A DNA stretch of 7,176 nt from Escherichia coli (GTDB lineage Bacteria; Pseudomonadota; Gammaproteobacteria; Enterobacterales; Enterobacteriaceae). This document shows, one piece after another, positions 1 through 7,176 of this stretch. The stretch is from the NCBI RefSeq assembly GCF_965641715.1, contig NZ_OZ282458.1; one strand, 5' to 3'. The notes below the pieces were generated by a model that was not told where the DNA came from, did not search any database, and was given only the letters and a program-made list of their open reading frames with translations. Within the stretch, counting starts at the first letter, position 1. Every line of letters begins with the position of its first letter. Made by a program: the position numbers and the translations under genes.

Positions 1-285
1 TTACTTGAACGCTGTGAGGGTAAACAACTGGCGGTATGGATGCGGCGGGTCTGCCTGGGGGAGCCGGTTGCCCGTTCCGGGAAGCTGCCGACACTGGCAC
101 CGCCGTTACTGCGTCAGCTGGCCGCCATCGGGAATAACCTGAATCAGACGGCGAGGAAGGTGAACAGCGAGCAGTGGTCTTCCGGTGACCGGGTTCAGGT
201 GGTGGCCGCACTGATGGCCATCGAGAGAGAGTTGCGCAGCTTACGGCAGGTCGTCAGGGAACATGGAGCGCGGGATGATAGTTAA
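1..285 (+). CDS. mbeC: Mobilization protein MbeC/MobC, 5'-truncated by the window edge (about 12 N-terminal codons missing)
   Basis: Frame 1 is open from position 1. Translation ...LAAIGNNLNQTARKVNSEQWSSGDRVQVVAALMAIERELRSLRQVVREHGARDDS matches my memory of ColE1-family MbeC. Stop TAA at 283-285 overlaps the mbeA start, the classic ColE1 arrangement. Confidence 0.85.
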   Translation, partial: LLERCEGKQLAVWMRRVCLGEPVARSGKLPTLAPPLLRQLAAIGNNLNQTARKVNSEQWSSGDRVQVVAALMAIERELRSLRQVVREHGARDDS

Positions 286-1828
286 GTTTCATGCCAGGGG
301 AAAAGGCGGTGGCAGTGGTCCGGTTGATTACCTGCTGGGAAGGGAGCGTAACCGGGAAGGGGCAACGGTGCTTCAGGGTGATCCGGAAGAAGTCCGGGAA
401 CTCATCGATGCCACGCCATTTGCGAAGAAATACACGTCAGGTGTTCTGTCGTTCGCGGAGAAGGAGCTGCCGCCGGGAGGACGTGAAAAGGTGATGGCGA
501 GCTTTGAGCGTGTACTGATGCCCGGTCTCGAAAAGAATCAGTACAGCATCCTGTGGGTAGAGCACCAGGACAAGGGACGGCTTGAGCTGAATTTTGTCAT
601 TCCGAACATGGAGCTACAGACCGGAAAACGCCTCCAGCCGTACTACGACCGGGCAGACAGGCCGAGAATTGATGCCTGGCAGACGCTGGTGAATCACCAT
701 TACGGGCTGCATGACCCCAACGCCCCGGAGAACCGCCGGACGCTGACCCTTCCTGATAACCTGCCGGAAACGAAACAGGCGCTTGCAGAGAGCGTCACAC
801 GCGGGATAGACGCTCTTTATCATGTCGGGGAGATAAAAGGCCGTCAGGATGTGATTCAGGCGCTCACAGAGGCAGGGCTTGAAGTGGTCAGGGTGACGCG
901 AAGCAGTATCAGCATTGCAGACCCGAACGGTGGGAAGAATATCAGGCTGAAAGGAGCATTTTATGAGCAATCTTTTACAGACGGGCGCGGAGTTCGAGAA
1001 AAAGCTGAAAGAGAGAGCCGAATCTACAGAGACAATGCTGAACGACGAGTTCAGCAAGCTCGAAAAATCTGTAAGCAAGGCTGTGACATCAAACGAGACG
1101 AAAATCAAAGACGCTATAGCCCTGTTCACAGCTTCGACAGAGGAATCACTGAAAAAACACCGGGAAGGGGTGAAAGAGGCGATGATGCAGCACAGGAAGG
1201 ACGTGTTAAAGCTGGCAGGGAATACGGGCATGATGTTACTGGGGATGGTCATTTTCCTGTTTACCGTGAGTGGCGGGACGCTCTGGTATCTTGGCGGGAT
1301 GATACAGGCGAACCTGGAAGAAATCAGGATACAGGAAGAAACATTGCAGAAACTGAACGCGAAGACATGGGGCGTGGAGTTTGTGCAGGACGGGAGAAGG
1401 AAATTTCTGGTCATCCCGCAGGGGAAATCGGCAACGGTGATTCCCTATCAGGGGAAGGACTGGGTACAACTGACGGAGTGACACAGAGTGACGGAGCTGG
1501 AAAGACATTTGCTGAACGCCTTAGAGCAACTGCAACAGGACTATATGCAGCGGCTGAACGAATGGGAGAGCGCCTTCGTGGAATTGCAGAAAATGTTTTC
1601 GCTTACGCAACAGGACAACGCGATGCTGAACGAGCAGGTCATGCAGTTGAGTCAGCAGGTGCAGCACTTGAGCGAGCGGACAGAACGCTTGAGCCAGTTA
1701 TACAGCGAGAACAGGAGATAAGGGACGAACGGCTGATACAGGAGCGCGAACATGAGTTATCCCTGGAGCGTGAGCGCCAGCTGGAAATACAGGAACGGAC
1801 ACTGGATGGCCCTTCGCTGGGATGGTAA
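275..1828 (+). CDS. mbeA: ColE1-type mobilization relaxase MbeA/MobA
   Basis: ORF beginning MIVKFHARGKGGGSGPVDYLLGRERNREGATVLQGDPEEVRELIDATPFAKKY... and ending ...ERTLDGPSLGW is near-identical to my recollection of ColE1 MbeA. ATG at 275 preferred over the track's ATG at 263 because MIVKF is the known N-terminus. Confidence 0.9.
   Translation: MIVKFHARGKGGGSGPVDYLLGRERNREGATVLQGDPEEVRELIDATPFAKKYTSGVLSFAEKELPPGGREKVMASFERVLMPGLEKNQYSILWVEHQDKGRLELNFVIPNMELQTGKRLQPYYDRADRPRIDAWQTLVNHHYGLHDPNAPENRRTLTLPDNLPETKQALAESVTRGIDALYHVGEIKGRQDVIQALTEAGLEVVRVTRSSISIADPNGGKNIRLKGAFYEQSFTDGRGVREKAERESRIYRDNAERRVQQARKICKQGCDIKRDENQRRYSPVHSFDRGITEKTPGRGERGDDAAQEGRVKAGREYGHDVTGDGHFPVYREWRDALVSWRDDTGEPGRNQDTGRNIAETEREDMGRGVCAGREKEISGHPAGEIGNGDSLSGEGLGTTDGVTQSDGAGKTFAERLRATATGLYAAAERMGERLRGIAENVFAYATGQRDAERAGHAVESAGAALERADRTLEPVIQREQEIRDERLIQEREHELSLERERQLEIQERTLDGPSLGW
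963..1481 (+). CDS. mbeB: Mobilization protein MbeB, encoded entirely inside mbeA in an alternate frame
   Basis: 172-aa ORF MSNLLQTGAEFEKKLKERAESTETMLNDEFSKLEKS... Nested position within mbeA is the known ColE1 organisation. Contains a hydrophobic segment (MMLLGMVIFLFTVSGGTLWYLGGMI). Confidence 0.8.
   Translation: MSNLLQTGAEFEKKLKERAESTETMLNDEFSKLEKSVSKAVTSNETKIKDAIALFTASTEESLKKHREGVKEAMMQHRKDVLKLAGNTGMMLLGMVIFLFTVSGGTLWYLGGMIQANLEEIRIQEETLQKLNAKTWGVEFVQDGRRKFLVIPQGKSATVIPYQGKDWVQLTE
1488..1721 (+). CDS. mbeD: Mobilization protein MbeD (small coiled-coil protein), GTG start, overlapping the 3' part of mbeA
   Basis: GTG at 1488-1490 immediately after the mbeB stop (1479-1481). Product TELERHLLNALEQLQQDYMQRLNEWESAFVELQ... 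sits at the position of ColE1 mbeD. Confidence 0.7.
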   Translation: MTELERHLLNALEQLQQDYMQRLNEWESAFVELQKMFSLTQQDNAMLNEQVMQLSQQVQHLSERTERLSQLYSENRR

Positions 1829-1949
1829 TCAGAGACAGGCTAAAATGTTGTCAGCGCGTTTCCGGTGCATTTTTTGGGATAATGGTTGGTTCGGGGGCAC
1901 CGGGAACGCGCTTCAGTCAGACCTTGCTGAAAACACAGGAACGCGTTAA
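1752..1949 (+). CDS. Possible small mob-associated ORF (MbeE-like position) overlapping the mbeA 3' end; uncertain
   Basis: 65-aa ORF at the position where ColE1 carries a fifth small mob ORF. I do not recognise the protein sequence itself, so this is positional only. Confidence 0.3.
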   Translation: MSYPWSVSASWKYRNGHWMALRWDGNQRQAKMLSARFRCIFWDNGWFGGTGNALQSDLAENTGTR

Positions 1950-2039
1950 AACGCATACGGGCGCGATTCTGGTGTGTCTTTTGTTGCTGTGTTTTGCCTC
2001 TATTGCCAGATCGCGCTCATTCCCCTGAACTTCTGTTTT

Positions 2040-2280
2040 CCCGCTCCGGTCCCCGTCTTCTTCGCTTCCGAAAGCATGAAAAAAATCCGTTTCAGCAGTC
2101 TCTGGCTGGCAATTCCTGCGTGATTCACATGGCTGCATAGCTATGCATGTGGTTAAAATTTACCGGGTGCGATCGCGGCAGTTTTTCGGGTGGTTTGTTG
2201 CCATTTTTACCTGTCTGCTGCCGTGATCGCACCGAACGCGTTTCTGCGGTGCGGGCAACGGATGTTATGGTAAATACAAT
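2040..2280. promoter_or_regulatory. cer: cer-like plasmid multimer-resolution site (accessory sequences plus XerC/XerD core)
   Basis: Segment cgcggcagtttttcgggtggtttgttgccatttttacctgtctgctgccgtgatcgc...gaacgcgttt...gcggtgcg...ttatggtaaat closely matches recalled ColE1 cer. Perfect palindrome tgcatagctatgca at 2134-2147 lies about 110 bp upstream of the core, where ArgR binds in cer. Confidence 0.75.
2248..2275. promoter_or_regulatory. XerC/XerD recombination core: XerC arm GGTGCGGGCAA, 6-bp central region CGGATG, XerD arm TTATGGTAAAT
   Basis: XerD arm is identical to the ColE1 cer/dif-type consensus TTATGGTAAAT. XerC arm differs from cer (GGTGCGTACAA) at two positions. Central region is 6 bp rather than the 8 bp of ColE1 cer. 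Confidence 0.7.
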
Positions 2281-2332
2281 ATGCAGCCAGTCTTAGAGAC
2301 GAAAAGTCCGCCCAGAAGACTGACTTTTCAGA

Positions 2333-2539
2333 TCAACCTTCAGCATCTAACTTGTCTATCGCTTTTTTATTGCGCCGATAGGTAGCCATTAGTTCACCAT
2401 CGCCTGATTGTAAGTCACGACCTGCTTGCTCAGCATAGGTATCGTTTACAGTCTTAGCGCCTTTTTTATAGGCCTTTTTAACATCATCAAATCCGGCTTG
2501 GATGACTTCTTTCGGCTTTTCTTGAGGTAATTTAGCCAT
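2333..2539 (-). CDS. Hypothetical 68-aa protein, second gene of a two-gene operon; function unknown
   Basis: ORF MAKLPQEKPKEVIQAGFDDVKKAYKKGAKTVNDTYAEQAGRDLQSGDGELMATYRRNKKAIDKLDAEG. ATG at 2539 preceded by GAGGA with 8-nt spacing. Start overlaps the upstream gene's stop (ATGGCTAA, 8-bp overlap), implying translational coupling. AT-rich like the neighbouring R-M genes. Confidence 0.6.
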   Translation of the reverse strand: MAKLPQEKPKEVIQAGFDDVKKAYKKGAKTVNDTYAEQAGRDLQSGDGELMATYRRNKKAIDKLDAEG

Positions 2540-2915
2540 GCTGTGAATCCTCTATAAGGTTGATTATTTTTCCAACAGATAAGACGGCATCTTCTGTGTC
2601 GCTGATTTTATGATTTATCCAACCGTCCTCTATCTTTAATTTGTTCACTACTCCTAATGTAAAAACAACCTTTTTTTCAGGAAAGAAAATTGCAAAGGTT
2701 CTACTTTTCTCTTTCCAATCAGAGGGCGGCGTCGAACGGAACGCTACATTCCTCGATTTAAGTATCGCTTTGATTTTACTAATTAATTCTTTTTTTTGTT
2801 TATTGCTGAGATTTTTGACGAACCCTTTGCTGAGATTGTCTGTGTAATCATCAAAAGAAATATCAACTGGTTTGTTTTTTTGTTTTTTATCAGATAGATG
2901 AACAATGTTTGACAC
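2532..2915 (-). CDS. Hypothetical 127-aa lysine-rich protein, first gene of the two-gene operon; function unknown
   Basis: ORF ...SNIVHLSDKKQKNKPVDISFDDYTDNLSKGFVKNLSNKQKKELISKIKAILKSRNVAFRSTPPSDWKEKSRTFAIFFPEKKVVFTLGVVNKLKIEDGWINHKISDTEDAVLSVGKIINLIEDSQHG. Initiation codon at 2915 is GTG, preceded by AGGA with 6-nt spacing. No motif I recognise. Confidence 0.6.
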   Translation of the reverse strand: MSNIVHLSDKKQKNKPVDISFDDYTDNLSKGFVKNLSNKQKKELISKIKAILKSRNVAFRSTPPSDWKEKSRTFAIFFPEKKVVFTLGVVNKLKIEDGWINHKISDTEDAVLSVGKIINLIEDSQHG

Positions 2916-3054
2916 TGGATATCCTGCTTTTTGATGAATGAATACTCAGAAGAGTAGCGGAACTGTCTTGTTAGTCACAGAGGTAGAGTATCAATTCTAC
3001 GATAGATGGGTTCGAAGATCCGGCTGAGACCGTTCAGTACGCGGTCGAGATGTT

Positions 3055-3059
3055 ATGTT
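3055..3059. repeat. 5-bp target-site duplication ATGTT, left copy
   Basis: ATGTT immediately outside the GGGG terminus of the left inverted repeat; identical pentamer at 3269-3273. Confidence 0.8.
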
Positions 3060-3097
3060 GGGGTCTGAAGTCCAATGGAACGAAAACGTACGTTAGT
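3060..3097 (+). repeat. Left terminal inverted repeat, Tn3 family
   Basis: GGGGTCTGAAGTCCAATGGAACGAAAACGTACGTTAGT matches the Tn3 right-end IR recalled from pBR322/pUC (GGGGTCTGACGCTCAGTGGAACGAAAACTCACGTTAAG) at about 30 of 38 positions, and is closer to the gamma-delta/Tn1000-type end as I recall it. Confidence 0.8.
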
Positions 3098-3230
3098 GAA
3101 GTAACTGTATGATATATCAAGACATAATAGACATAGAAAAACGCCATCAAAACGGTGTCTTTTTAATCGAAAATTGGCACTTAACGGACGGCATTGTCTA
3201 CTAATCGATTTTTAAGACGATAATTTTCCT

Positions 3231-3268
3231 CTTACCGTACATTTTCGTACGGTTGGCCCTCAAACCCC
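3231..3268 (-). repeat. Right terminal inverted repeat, Tn3 family
   Basis: Reverse complement of 3231-3268 is GGGGTTTGAGGGCCAACCGTACGAAAATGTACGGTAAG, matching the left IR at 28 of 38 positions including the GGGG terminus and the ACGAAAA core. Confidence 0.8.
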
Positions 3269-3273
3269 ATGTT
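3269..3273. repeat. 5-bp target-site duplication ATGTT, right copy
   Basis: ATGTT immediately outside the right IR terminus; identical to 3055-3059. Confidence 0.8.
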
Positions 3274-3519
3274 CAATGTAATGACCGTCGAAATTGCCTT
3301 TACGGGCATGAAGCAACCAGGAGCAATCATTGGCAAAGGTAACTAGAGTTCAATGCATGGTAATCATTTTTGAGCTTGTGATGCATAGAGTTGGTTGCTG
3401 TTCCATTGCGTCTCAAACTCCGTCAAGATGCTCGCCGTAAAAGCGAGCATGTCTAGTATGCCTGTTCCGCTACTGATTTTTGATGGGCGAATTCAGGGCT
3501 GGCTAGCCACCAAGAAAAA

Positions 3520-4581
3520 TTACTTTATTTCATCAAACAGGTGAGATGCAGTATAATAAACGCTTTGATCAAAGCGTCTCTCTGGGCTTAATTTATTTTG
3601 CCCGCCATTTAAAATTATTTCTTTTAATACTGATGGTGGAAGGATGGGTTTTGTTCTTCTTGGGTGATCCATATAAGCTTTTGTTATTTTTCCGTTTAGC
3701 GAGAACTCTTTATCACTTTGATATCCAAAGTTCATCTCAGTATAAATTCTATTGATGTTTGTCTTGTTTTTGCTCGCAATTTCATACACCATTCTGGCGA
3801 GTCTGGCTGATGATCTCATTAGTCTGCTGGCAGATGAATTGTTATATGAGGATCTATCAATAAAGGTTCGACACAAAGCAAAATCACTCCAGATGAATAT
3901 GTCAAAGGCATTTTGATCTAATATTGGGCTCTTGCCTTTTGTTTTCCATAATGGTTGCATTAAAAAAGGTTTCTGGTAATCAAGAAAATTTTCTTGGAAA
4001 GTGTTTAGGCAATTTAATATATTTTCTTTCTTTGAAAGAACTTCAGTTTCATTCCCCCAGTGCTGTATGCTTTCGCATGTGGATTCAAATATTTTTCTTA
4101 TTTCATGGAATTTATCGCTGCAAGAGTGCATTATGCCAAGGGCACAATAAGAAGTGCTTGCAGGTCTTATTACAATCTCTGAACTCCATTCGCTCTCGTT
4201 TTCTTTATATGTCGTGCTATCTGGGAGTACGGTTAATTTTATTTCTAGTGCTTTTAAAAAACTATTGTTTCCTTTTATAACTAGATCTATTCCTTTTATG
4301 TCATCATAAGCATACTGTTGGTATGGTTCATATTTTTTCTCAAATTGAAATTCAAGATCACTATTTTTTAATGTTGTGTTAAAAACGAAGTCAAAAGATA
4401 CTTCTTTGGCATGCACTTTTAAATCCTTATCTAAATAAAGATAAATCGGATTCATTTTGTTGTCTCTCATATAACATGCTAGAGAGGTGGGAAAAGAACT
4501 GTTAAATTGGTTCTTTCCCCACAGATCGCTCTCTTTCCTGTTGGTGTTTTTTAAACCATAAAGAGATTCTATTTTGCTCAC
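3520..4581 (-). CDS. Putative Type II restriction endonuclease, PD-(D/E)xK-like
   Basis: 353-aa ORF divergent from the C5-methyltransferase gene. GTG start at 4581 preceded by AGGAG with 6-nt spacing. Translation contains D99 (GIDLVIK) then 13 residues to E113-I-K115 (ALEIKL), the spacing expected for a PD-(D/E)xK catalytic core. AT-rich. No match recalled to a named enzyme. Confidence is about 0.85 that it is a real gene, about 0.55 for the function. Confidence 0.6.
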   Translation of the reverse strand: MSKIESLYGLKNTNRKESDLWGKNQFNSSFPTSLACYMRDNKMNPIYLYLDKDLKVHAKEVSFDFVFNTTLKNSDLEFQFEKKYEPYQQYAYDDIKGIDLVIKGNNSFLKALEIKLTVLPDSTTYKENESEWSSEIVIRPASTSYCALGIMHSCSDKFHEIRKIFESTCESIQHWGNETEVLSKKENILNCLNTFQENFLDYQKPFLMQPLWKTKGKSPILDQNAFDIFIWSDFALCRTFIDRSSYNNSSASRLMRSSARLARMVYEIASKNKTNINRIYTEMNFGYQSDKEFSLNGKITKAYMDHPRRTKPILPPSVLKEIILNGGQNKLSPERRFDQSVYYTASHLFDEIK

Positions 4582-4668
4582 TTTTTGCTCCTGACGTCAA
4601 TTTATTGACGTCTATGGTGTGTTTCTATATCATGATGTGGAGTGATATGATAATGAGTTTTTTATGTT
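4582..4668. promoter_or_regulatory. Divergent R/M promoter-operator region with tandem TTGACGTCAA palindromes
   Basis: cTGACGTCAAtttaTTGACGTCta at 4591-4614 gives two copies of a palindromic decamer 4 bp apart. The second copy supplies a -35 (TTGACG, 4605-4610) for the plus-strand M promoter; 17-bp spacer; -10 TATCAT at 4628-4633. The R-gene SD lies directly beside the first copy. Confidence 0.5.
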
Positions 4669-5826
4669 ATGAGAATAATTGATCTTTTTAGTGGGTGTGG
4701 GGGGTTATCCCTAGGCTTTTTGAAGGGGGGGTTTGATGTTGTAGGTGCTTATGATTTCTGGGATCCTGCTATTGAATGTTACAGAGATAATTTTAGCCAT
4801 CCGATAAAAAAACTAGATTTGAGCAATGTTGATGATGTGGTGAGGGAGCTTAAAGATATAGACTTCGATATGATTATTGGAGGGCCTCCTTGCCAAGACT
4901 TCAGTCATGCAGGTTTAAGAATTGAAGGTGCTAGAGCTAACTTAACTCGCTCATTTTCAGAAATTATAAAAAGAATAAAGCCAAAGTGGTTTGTGATGGA
5001 AAATGTAGATCGGGCATTAAGAAGTGGTGCCTATTTAGAAGCTCGAGGAATCTTTAAAGAATCAGGGTATGGGTTAACAGAAATTGTTTTGGATGCCAGT
5101 AAGTGTGGTGTTCCGCAAAAAAGAAAAAGATTATTTGTAATTGGAAAGCTTGACGTGAGGGATGGTTTTATCCTTAACGAAGTGATGTGCGGGATATCGA
5201 AAGATAGTATGACAGTTAGAAATTATCTTGGTGATTCATTGGGGATTGAGTATTATTACAGACATCCGAGAAATTATAACAGAAGGGCTATTTTCTCTAT
5301 TGATGAACCTGCGCCAACAGTAAGAGGGGTTAATAGACCGATACCTGATGGATATTTAGGGCATGCAGGCGATCCTGTCAGTATTTCTGAGAATGTAAGG
5401 CCATTAACAACCTTTGAAAGAGCAAGATTGCAAACATTTCCTGAAGACTTTAAATTTAAAGGTGCAAAAACAAATTTGGAGCAAATGATAGGTAATGCTG
5501 TTCCGGTTGAGTTAGCAAAATATGTTGCGGTGACAATCATGGAGTATGAAAAAAAACAAGTAAAAGGTATTTATGATAAAGAAGGCTTTAGGGCGTGGTT
5601 GCTGAATGAAAAGAAACTAACAAAAAGAACCTCTAGCGATATTATATCTAGATGTTGCAGAGGTGTTTCATTTTTTGATTCAGAGGGGGTGGATTTTTAT
5701 AACTGTGAAATAGATGAAATTATTATGAAACTGGAAAGGCTTGAATCGTTTGTCAGGCTTGGGGTTAGCCTGAAGTCTCAGTTAAGAAGGGCTTTTAAAT
5801 TATATTACGAATATTGTCGAAGGTAA
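4669..5826 (+). CDS. DNA (cytosine-5)-methyltransferase with a C-terminal extension of about 95 aa
   Basis: All canonical C5-MTase motifs in order: motif I FSGCGG (aa 7-12), motif IV GGPPCQDFS (catalytic Cys75), motif VI ENV (aa 111-113), motif VIII QKRKR (aa 150-154), short target-recognition region, motif IX RPLTTFERARLQTFPEDF, motif X GNAVPVELAKYVA. About 95 further residues follow motif X. Confidence 0.92.
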   Translation: MRIIDLFSGCGGLSLGFLKGGFDVVGAYDFWDPAIECYRDNFSHPIKKLDLSNVDDVVRELKDIDFDMIIGGPPCQDFSHAGLRIEGARANLTRSFSEIIKRIKPKWFVMENVDRALRSGAYLEARGIFKESGYGLTEIVLDASKCGVPQKRKRLFVIGKLDVRDGFILNEVMCGISKDSMTVRNYLGDSLGIEYYYRHPRNYNRRAIFSIDEPAPTVRGVNRPIPDGYLGHAGDPVSISENVRPLTTFERARLQTFPEDFKFKGAKTNLEQMIGNAVPVELAKYVAVTIMEYEKKQVKGIYDKEGFRAWLLNEKKLTKRTSSDIISRCCRGVSFFDSEGVDFYNCEIDEIIMKLERLESFVRLGVSLKSQLRRAFKLYYEYCRR

Positions 5827-5922: not shown

Positions 5923-6470
5923 GTAAACAAAAAAACCACCGCTACCAACGGTGGTTTGTTTGCCGGAATCTAGAGCTACCAACTCTTTCTTCCGAAGGTA
6001 ACTGGCTTGGTGGAGCACAGATACCAAATACTGTCCTTCTAGTGTAGCCGCAGTTAGGCCACCACTTCAAGAACTCTTAATATCTCAATCCACCTTGTCC
6101 AGTTACCAGTGGCTGCTGCCAGTGGCGCTTTGTCGTGTCTTACCGGGTTGGACTCAAGACGATAGTTACCGGATAAGGCGCAGCGGTCGGGCTGAACGGG
6201 GGGTTCGTGCACACAGCCCAGCTTGGAGCGAACGACCTACACCGAACTGAGATACCAACAGCGTGAGCTATGAGAAAGCGCCACGCTTCCCGAAGGGAGA
6301 AAGGCGGACAGGTATCCGGTAAGCGGCAGGGTCGGAACAGGAGAGCGCACGAGGGAGCTTCCAGGGGGAAACGCCTGGTATCTTTAAGTCCTGTCGGGTT
6401 TCGCCACCTCTGACTTGAGCGTCGATTTTTGTGATGCTCGTCAGGGGGGCGGAGCCTATGGAAAAACGCC
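5923..6470 (+). ncRNA. RNAII replication primer precursor of the ColE1-type replicon (3' end approximate)
   Basis: Long near-identity to the pMB1/pUC ori sequence (GTAAACAAAAAAACCACCGCTACC...GGGGAAACGCCTGGTATCTTTA...GGAGCCTATGGAAAAACGCCAGC) with clustered substitutions in the 5' stem-loops. Confidence 0.8.
5925..6034 (-). ncRNA. RNAI antisense copy-number control RNA (about 108 nt)
   Basis: Reverse complement begins ACAGTATTTGGTATCTGTGCTCCACCAAGCCAGTTACC... and ends at the GCGGTGGTTTTTTTGTTTAC terminator, as in pMB1 RNAI. Promoter on the minus strand: -35 TTGAAG and -10 TACACT within 6035-6070. Confidence 0.8.
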
Positions 6471-6480
6471 AGCGGCGTGG
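6440..6480 (+). other. Approximate replication origin (RNAII-to-DNA transition) of the ColE1-type replicon
   Basis: Position inferred by collinearity with the pBR322 origin relative to rop and the conserved ggagcctatggaaaaacgccagc block. Exact nucleotide not determinable here. Confidence 0.5.
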
Positions 6481-6639
6481 CCTTCTCTGGGTTCTTGTTT
6501 TTTGCTCACATGTTTCTTTTGGTGTTATCCCCTGATTCTGTGGATAACCGCATTACCGTCTTTGAGTGAGCTGATACCGCTCGCCGCAGCCGAACGACCG
6601 AGCGTAGCGAGTCAGTGAGCGAGGAAGCGGAAGAGCGTC

Positions 6640-6790
6640 GGAAGTTGCATTTTCTCCTTACACATCTGTGCGGCATTTCACACCCGGCATGGCGCACTTT
6701 TCATACAATCTGCACTGATGCCGCATGGTTAAGCCAGTATACACTCCGCTATCGCTACGTGACTGGGTCAGGGCTTCGCCCCGACACCCG
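6640..6790 (-). promoter_or_regulatory. oriT/bom region of the ColE1-type mob system; predicted nic between minus-strand G6734 and C6733
   Basis: Between origin and rop, as in pBR322 bom. Minus strand reads gtgtatACTGG|CTTAAccatgcgg, matching the ColE1 nic context as I recall it (CTGG/CTTA). Both the boundaries and the nick position are from memory. Confidence 0.5.
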
Positions 6791-6882
6791 CAAGGTCAAC
6801 GGCCTGACGCGCCCTGACGGGCTTGTCTGCTCCCGGCATCCGCTCACAGACAAGCTGTGACCGTCTCCGGGAGCTGTATGTG

Positions 6883-7074
6883 TCAGAGGTTTTCACCGTC
6901 ATCCCCGAAGCGTGCGAGGCAGCTGCGGTAAAGCTCATCGGCGTGGTCGTGAAGCGATTCACAGATGTCTGCCTGTTCATCCGCGTCCAGTTCGTTGAGC
7001 TTTTCCAGCAGCGTTAATGTCTGGCTTCTGATAAAGCGCGCCATGTTAAGGGCTGTTTTTTCCTGTTTAGTCAC
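6883..7074 (-). CDS. rop: Rop/Rom (RNA one modulator), 63 aa, GTG start
   Basis: Translation VTKQEKTALNMARFIRSQTLTLLEKLNELDADEQADICESLHDHADELYRSCLARFGDDGENL is identical to pBR322 Rop as I recall it. GTG at 7074 preceded by GGAGG with 5-nt spacing. The track's extension to 7170 is the usual upstream open frame, not the gene. Confidence 0.95.
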   Translation of the reverse strand: MTKQEKTALNMARFIRSQTLTLLEKLNELDADEQADICESLHDHADELYRSCLARFGDDGENL

Positions 7075-7176
7075 TGATGCCTCCGTGTAAGGGGGATTTC
7101 TGTTCATGGGGTAATGATACCGATGAAACGCGAGAGGATGCTCACGATACGGGTTACTGATGATGAACATGCACGG

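Follow-up and report, generated by a model that had tools for sequence, protein, structure and literature searches.

What does a perfect 8-bp inverted repeat do beside the dimer-resolution site of a small plasmid, and did it arrive with the plasmid backbone or with its cargo? We addressed this question in a 7176-bp stretch of Escherichia coli DNA (contig NZ_OZ282458.1), hereafter the window, which is a complete mobilizable plasmid of the ColE1 type. The repeat lies between a minus-strand operon of two small genes, encoding proteins of 127 and 68 amino acids (aa), and a cer-type core for recombination by XerC and XerD (XerCD). The initial annotation of this segment offered two readings of the repeat, a transcription stop or stability hairpin, or a recombination scar marking where the cargo joined the backbone. 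Our comparisons indicate that the repeat is probably the base of an intrinsic-terminator hairpin which ends the 127-aa/68-aa operon, with transcription running on the minus strand towards cer.

Results and Discussion

A terminator-homologous hairpin at the end of the operon

The two arms of the repeat, GAAAAGTC (2301-2308) and GACTTTTC (2322-2329), are perfect complements separated by 13 nt, as first described, and the repeat does lie directly downstream of the small operon, where a sense-strand stem-loop starts 3 nt past the TGA stop codon of its last gene, the 68-aa gene (2333-2335, minus strand). The arm sequence has no other occurrence in the window, operon promoter included. The repeat forms the lower stem of a hairpin with its core at 2306-2324, and the repeat's outer 4 bp provide an A-run and a U-run around that core, such that the sense RNA reads, in order, the A-run GAAAA, the core GUC-A-GUCU/GGGC-G-GAC and the U-run UUUUC GUCUC. 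The earlier remark that no U-tract follows holds for the sequence beyond the repeat, but it mis-parses the structure, since the U-run (the complement of 2302-2305) is part of the repeat's own arm.

To place this hairpin among its homologues, seven variants of the operon's 3' end were compared: the window, Cronobacter dublinensis plasmid pA84-3, C. sakazakii contigs and four Logan contigs. All seven have a stop codon, an A-tract, a hairpin, a U-tract, a spacer of 17-26 nt and then an XerD arm, and all but the window (six of the seven) carry a textbook terminator, composed of an A-tract, a GC hairpin and a U-tract, at the same position. Examples from the relatives are GAAAAAGCCGCC-TGTATA-GGCGGCTTTTTATC, GAAAAGGCCGCC-TACG-GGCGGCCTTTTC and GAAAAGCCGCCC-TAC-GGGTGGCTTTTTTTTT, with which the window counterpart GAAAAGTCAGTC-TTCTG-GGCGGACTTTTC aligns. 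The spacer between hairpin and XerD arm is unrelated in sequence among lineages, and the cer-type core that follows it has the same orientation throughout. Judged from this alignment, the 8-bp repeat is the A-run and U-run plus the outermost GUC/GAC of the terminator-homologous hairpin.

The stem is conserved among homologues by compensatory change. In the in-register alignment 94% of cells are paired and three of the 12 pairs have changed on both sides (A-U/G-C and G-C/U-A), whereas a control in which the partner was slid by 1-3 columns gave 40-67% paired cells and no double-sided change; pair counts were taken from the in-register alignment only, and MAFFT alignments, which were out of structural register, were left out. 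The first 38 nt of sense RNA fold at -15 to -26 kcal/mol in the relatives versus -13.2 kcal/mol in the window, and the relatives' terminators fold similarly on both strands, at roughly -16 to -27 kcal/mol per strand. Of the two readings first offered, the transcription stop or stability hairpin is thus the one supported, by the canonical terminators in the same place in six homologues, by the covariation and by the sense-strand bias described below.

A weakened core and an alternative hairpin

Within the window, the first 35-46 nt of post-stop RNA fold into the terminator-type hairpin at -11.5 to -14.1 kcal/mol. Its core by itself, with one A/G mismatch and two G-U pairs, falls short of a stable GC-rich stem, and an energy of about -13 kcal/mol (-13.2) is reached only when the A-U tract pairs are counted. 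In the E. coli/Salmonella lineage, a cluster of substitutions has turned the consensus GCCGCC of the 5' arm into GUCAGUC, and in doing so it both cut the stability of the core to -4.3 kcal/mol and gave the arm 10 nt of complementarity to the downstream spacer AAGACTGGCT. An origin of these substitutions by quasi-palindrome template switching would fit, as a speculation.

A second inverted repeat, missed in the initial annotation, overlaps the first (2285-2294 with 2316-2325); it spans 10 nt, is 90% complementary as DNA and is fully paired as RNA, with one G-U pair. It supplies the outer 10-bp stem of an alternative 41-nt hairpin, whose inner 7-bp stem, with three G-U pairs, joins 2307-2313 to 2297-2303. 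Folding of the segment is strand-biased (-21.4 kcal/mol sense versus -10.2 kcal/mol antisense), the G-U pairs being available on the sense strand only. The 41-nt hairpin has a z of -2.8 and an equilibrium pair probability of 0.93, and shuffling the spacer gave structures as stable as -21.4 kcal/mol in 2.75% of trials. Formation of this hairpin needs at least 50 nt of post-stop RNA, and the terminator-type hairpin therefore forms first.

Compared with bidirectional intrinsic terminators, which consist of an A-tract, a GC stem-loop and a U-tract, the window hairpin has the same post-stop place and the same A-run and U-run flanks, but its GC core is degraded, its U-run is only UUUUC, it is confined to one strand and it competes with a larger hairpin. 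A polymerase arriving at the U-run would have behind it only the weak terminator hairpin, and termination there would probably be partial. In transcripts that read through, the larger hairpin would form about 10 nt short of the XerD arm, and this structure could pause or stop the polymerase, or shield the 3' end. The purpose of the arrangement would be to keep operon transcription out of cer from the XerC/XerD side; it has been argued that transcripts entering cer from there could dislodge XerCD and so activate Pcer/Rcd in plasmid monomers (PMC2831885). The order of operon, terminator and XerD arm is invariable, as would be expected if transcription into cer from the recombinase side were selected against.

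The boundary between backbone and cargo

The cer-type core comprises an XerC arm (GGTGCGGGCAA, 2248-2258), the central region CGGATG (2259-2264) and an XerD arm (TTATGGTAAAT, 2265-2275), and no other part of the window matches the XerC-6N-XerD pattern (0 matches expected). The central region reads GAGATG, GAAATG, CAGATG or GGGATG in relatives. A central region of 6 bp is found likewise in mwr, psi and dif, unlike the 8 bp of ColE1 cer. An open reading frame (ORF) of 49 aa (2147-2296, plus strand) spans the core and is annotated as a "plasmid mobilization protein" in CP016039; this is probably a mis-annotation overlapping a non-coding recombination site.

The cer region is homologous to more than 1,200 ColE1-type plasmids. 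Two plasmids with other cargo, the 5128-bp pP136-8 and the 5775-bp pC06114_5, match the window at 1-2276 and ~6020-7176, and the three sequences part at base 2277, one base past the XerD arm. Among complete E. coli genomes, the 2240-2345 segment is found whole in 39 plasmids, while in more than 60 others homology ends at 2275/2276; the repeat is absent from those plasmids, as it is from pP136-8 and pC06114_5. Because homology to plasmids with other cargo ends at 2276/2277, the true junction lies 25 bp to the left of the repeat. The similarity to cer had been placed as ending just right of the XerD arm, which is correct, and the comparison that had been proposed, with ColE1-family plasmids lacking this cargo, fixes the breakpoint to the base; backbone homology running on through the segment, which would have spoken against a junction here, was not seen.

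On the cargo side, the 6715-bp sister plasmids (L003/L014) have the same cargo, the same repeat and the same XerD side, together with another XerC arm (GGTGTGCGTAA) and ~5% divergence in the mob/accessory region (compared with window 2130-2258), and this difference would be the pattern expected of exchange inside the cer core. The plasmid alignments thus indicate that the cer core is the module boundary, and that the repeat, 25 bp into the cargo, is distinct from the junction and is inherited with the operon and not with the backbone. A module boundary at the cer core agrees with the view in the literature that cer and oriT are where ColE1-type plasmids recombine (PMC8683028, PMC6764390, PMC7399989), and these studies, citing Tran 2012 and Zakharova 2002, describe the dimer-resolution sites cer and mwr as hot spots of exchange between ColE1-type plasmids. 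Similarly to ColE1 cer and pJHCMW1 mwr, the window core has an XerC arm, a spacer and an XerD arm, with accessory sequences on the XerC side; the cargo of the window differs right beyond the XerD arm, and the sister plasmids differ in the XerC arm and accessory region. The repeat itself is no part of the site, homology to other cer sites ending at 2276.

Weighing the alternatives

Several observations weigh against a terminator at work in this lineage. The core hairpin of the window, at -4.3 kcal/mol, compares with -10.7 to -16.3 kcal/mol in the six relatives; the U-run is 4 nt long, with 6 U in the 10 nt of the tail UUUUCGUCUC; no canonical U-tract follows the larger hairpin (GCAUAUUGUAUUU); and a consensus terminator scan raised no flag at the window site. 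All of the at least 39 E. coli copies are identical at the hairpin, and conservation within the lineage therefore carries no information. The insulating role that we infer for the hairpin, moreover, derives from a published argument (PMC2831885). These points would equally suit a dead relic, that is, a former terminator which now neither terminates nor stabilizes, with read-through into cer and a larger hairpin that is incidental, and a lineage this uniform could not reveal purifying selection. We nonetheless regard such a relic as rather unlikely. The whole hairpin with its A-U pairs still reaches -13 kcal/mol, and its U-run, which failed a simple scan rule, is as long as that of the C. sakazakii variant (other relatives have 5-9 U). 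The consensus scan, applied to three relatives, flagged one and missed two, and it is therefore not decisive; explicit measurements of core hairpin and tail were used instead. Furthermore, the substitutions that weakened the core also gave the sense-specific structure of -21.4 kcal/mol, a stability matched by few spacer shuffles, and the universal presence of the terminator in relatives argues that read-through into cer is disfavored.

The remaining explanations fare much worse. A DNA-level palindrome, an operator or a recombinase accessory site read as duplex DNA, might be suspected of any perfect 8-bp inverted repeat close to a recombination site, but it is very unlikely here: relatives retain complementarity and not sequence, with varying stems and loops, the structure relies on G-U pairs of one strand, the A-run/T-run plus GC arms are a terminator signature, and neither the operon promoter nor any other part of the window repeats the motif. 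We therefore reject it. That the repeat is a scar or junction sequence left where the cargo met the ColE1 backbone was suggested by its position within 50 bp of the end of backbone homology, and is now highly improbable, as the breakpoint sits at the edge of the XerD arm, 25 bp from a repeat that is co-inherited with the operon, has no second copy of its arm in the window and is homologous to terminators in plasmids of other backbones; it too is rejected. Finally, the repeat is short, and perfect 8-bp inverted repeats with a loop of 3-20 nt are not rare in the window (12 register hits versus 2.2 ± 1.8 in dinucleotide shuffles), so chance alone, without history or function, deserves mention. 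Its probability is negligible, with about 0.017 such repeats expected per 57 bp and a homologous hairpin at the same position, with compensatory changes, in six diverged relatives; those homologous hairpins contradict it, and it was discarded. Taken together, the feature is an ordinary, unannotated, weakened terminator or 3'-end hairpin of the operon, and efficient termination in this lineage is not assured.

The operon and its relatives

The operon is rare. PLSDB has 22 plasmids that carry it, its proteins fall into a handful of clusters, and diverged versions were seen in C. dublinensis pA84-3, C. sakazakii contigs and several Logan contigs. Of the 22 plasmids, 21 carry restriction-modification (R-M) genes, and the remaining one, Cronobacter pA84-3, is without them; an "empty site" version of the R-M cargo was sought in PLSDB and none was found, all 21 R-M plasmids having the operon. 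The 68-aa gene is kept as the second of a gene pair down to 40-62% identity in other elements. More distant copies of the pair (38-43% identity) reside in a chromosomal island with a phage-type integrase gene beside mutS (L026), at another chromosomal locus (L029) and on small contigs beside XerD arms. The 127-aa and 68-aa proteins had no match in Pfam, NCBIfam, PHROGs, PADLOC or a PDB sequence search, and Foldseek against the PDB returned no significant match.

A second Xer-type site and a possible cassette

Between the window and the Cronobacter and Logan relatives, homology is limited to 2248-3057, a stretch that starts at the cer core and runs up to a second Xer-type site, site 2. The XerD arm of this site is complete in relatives, reading TTATGGTAAAT or a sequence close to it (L005 2630-2657, L008 ~1393-1420, L014 ~5300-5327). 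Every lineage has an XerD arm plus GATG on the promoter-side edge, with an XerC-side arm that is weakly canonical (GTACGC...). Site 2 and the cer core share one XerC-to-XerD direction, and in at least seven lineages a pair of directly oriented Xer-type sites appears to bracket the ~0.8-kb operon module. The neighbors of this module vary, and include R-M genes, DUF262 genes, a DnaD_N/HTH_36 gene or others, on several unrelated small-plasmid backbones.

In the window the XerD arm of site 2 is interrupted at 3059/3060 by a 209-bp miniature element, which is absent from the 6715-bp plasmids, where the arm is uninterrupted (TTATGTTCAAT). The insertion is flanked by a 5-bp target duplication, ATGTT (3055-3059 and 3269-3273), and bounded by terminal inverted repeats of ~37 nt that are 78% complementary. 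With Tn3-type terminal repeats, a 5-bp duplication, no transposase and many copies it has the marks of a Tn3 miniature, and its end sequence resembles the Tn3 inverted repeat quoted in PMC6764390. The element is present at full length, and unannotated, in 431 PLSDB plasmids of many genera.

In addition to the occupied modules, E. coli plasmid pLR-71-1_7 (L024) has the flank of pA84-3 site 2 joined to a single XerD arm, together with a central region, an XerC arm and accessory sequences like those of pA84-3 site 1. In this one comparison, at 71-79% identity, it looks like the corresponding empty site. An operon-free Pantoea plasmid (L025, ~1199-1222) shares TTTATCTATTC, 11 nt of the spacer, with pA84-3 (L005, 3394-3415). 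These 11 nt lie just outside the XerD arm, which complicates a pure Xer-crossover model, and the operon module of the pA84-3 lineage may be bounded by the terminator's U-tract and not by the Xer core.

The arrangement recalls the pdif modules of Acinetobacter and integrative mobile elements exploiting Xer (IMEX), in that a ~0.8-kb operon lies between two XerD-arm-bearing sites on several unrelated backbones. Unlike the sites of pdif modules, which are inverted, those of the operon are directly oriented, an IMEX-like arrangement; site 2 also departs from both in its poorly canonical XerC side and, in the window, in being split by a miniature transposon. From these sequence comparisons, the operon is a candidate for a mobile Xer-bracketed cassette.

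Plasmid context

The window shares 99.3% identity with E. coli pSTEC310_3 over most of the length and 92.6% in the ori/rop segment. At permissive thresholds, RNAI was the sole Rfam match in the window, with none at 2276-2332. Two other perfect 8-bp inverted repeats lie at 3428-3450 and 4593-4612, the former (ATGCTCGC/GCGAGCAT) ~70 nt downstream of the restriction gene and the latter between the R-M genes (4582-4668); a terminator and a regulatory palindrome are possible identities for the two. Coordinates of all features are collected in Table 1.

Table 1. Features of the 7176-bp window, with positions and the observations on which they are placed.
Feature	Position	Strand	Remarks
mob genes	within 1-2276		backbone segment
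cer-type XerCD core	2248-2275	+	XerC arm, central region and XerD arm read directly
Backbone/cargo breakpoint	2276/2277		A2276 common, divergence from 2277; plasmid alignment and blastn ends
Spacer, hairpin to XerD arm	2277-2300	minus	holds 3' arm (2285-2294) of the larger hairpin
Alternative larger hairpin, 41 nt	2285-2325	minus	minimum free energy fold of sense RNA
Terminator-homologous hairpin	2301-2329	minus	GAAAAGUC-A-GUCU-ucu-GGGC-G-GACUUUUC; folds, position, covariation
68-aa gene, distal in operon	2333-2539	minus	ORF
127-aa gene, proximal in operon	2532-2915	minus	8-nt overlap with 68-aa start
Site 2, second Xer-type site	3036-3059	+	AGTACGCGGTC-GAGATG-TTATGTT; XerD arm cut after 7 nt
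Tn3-family miniature inverted-repeat element, 209 bp	3060-3268		inserted in XerD arm of site 2
Site 2 XerD remainder, CAAT (4 nt)	3274-3277	+	comparison with uninterrupted site in L014
HindVP-family restriction gene	3520-4581	minus	
C5 methyltransferase	4669-5826		
RNAI	5927-6032		Rfam match at permissive thresholds
rop			also carried by the plasmid

Implications

The hairpin adds an unannotated terminator to a family of hypothetical plasmid genes, and otherwise changes little. The comparison also fixes the cargo boundary at the cer XerD arm, in line with exchange at cer and oriT, and offers a natural example of a terminator that would be placed against transcription entering an Xer site from the recombinase side and is decaying in one lineage. 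The Xer-bracketed arrangement could be a more interesting lead than the hairpin: if the cassette is real, enterobacterial ColE1-like plasmids would have an exchange of small modules comparable to that of the Acinetobacter pdif modules.
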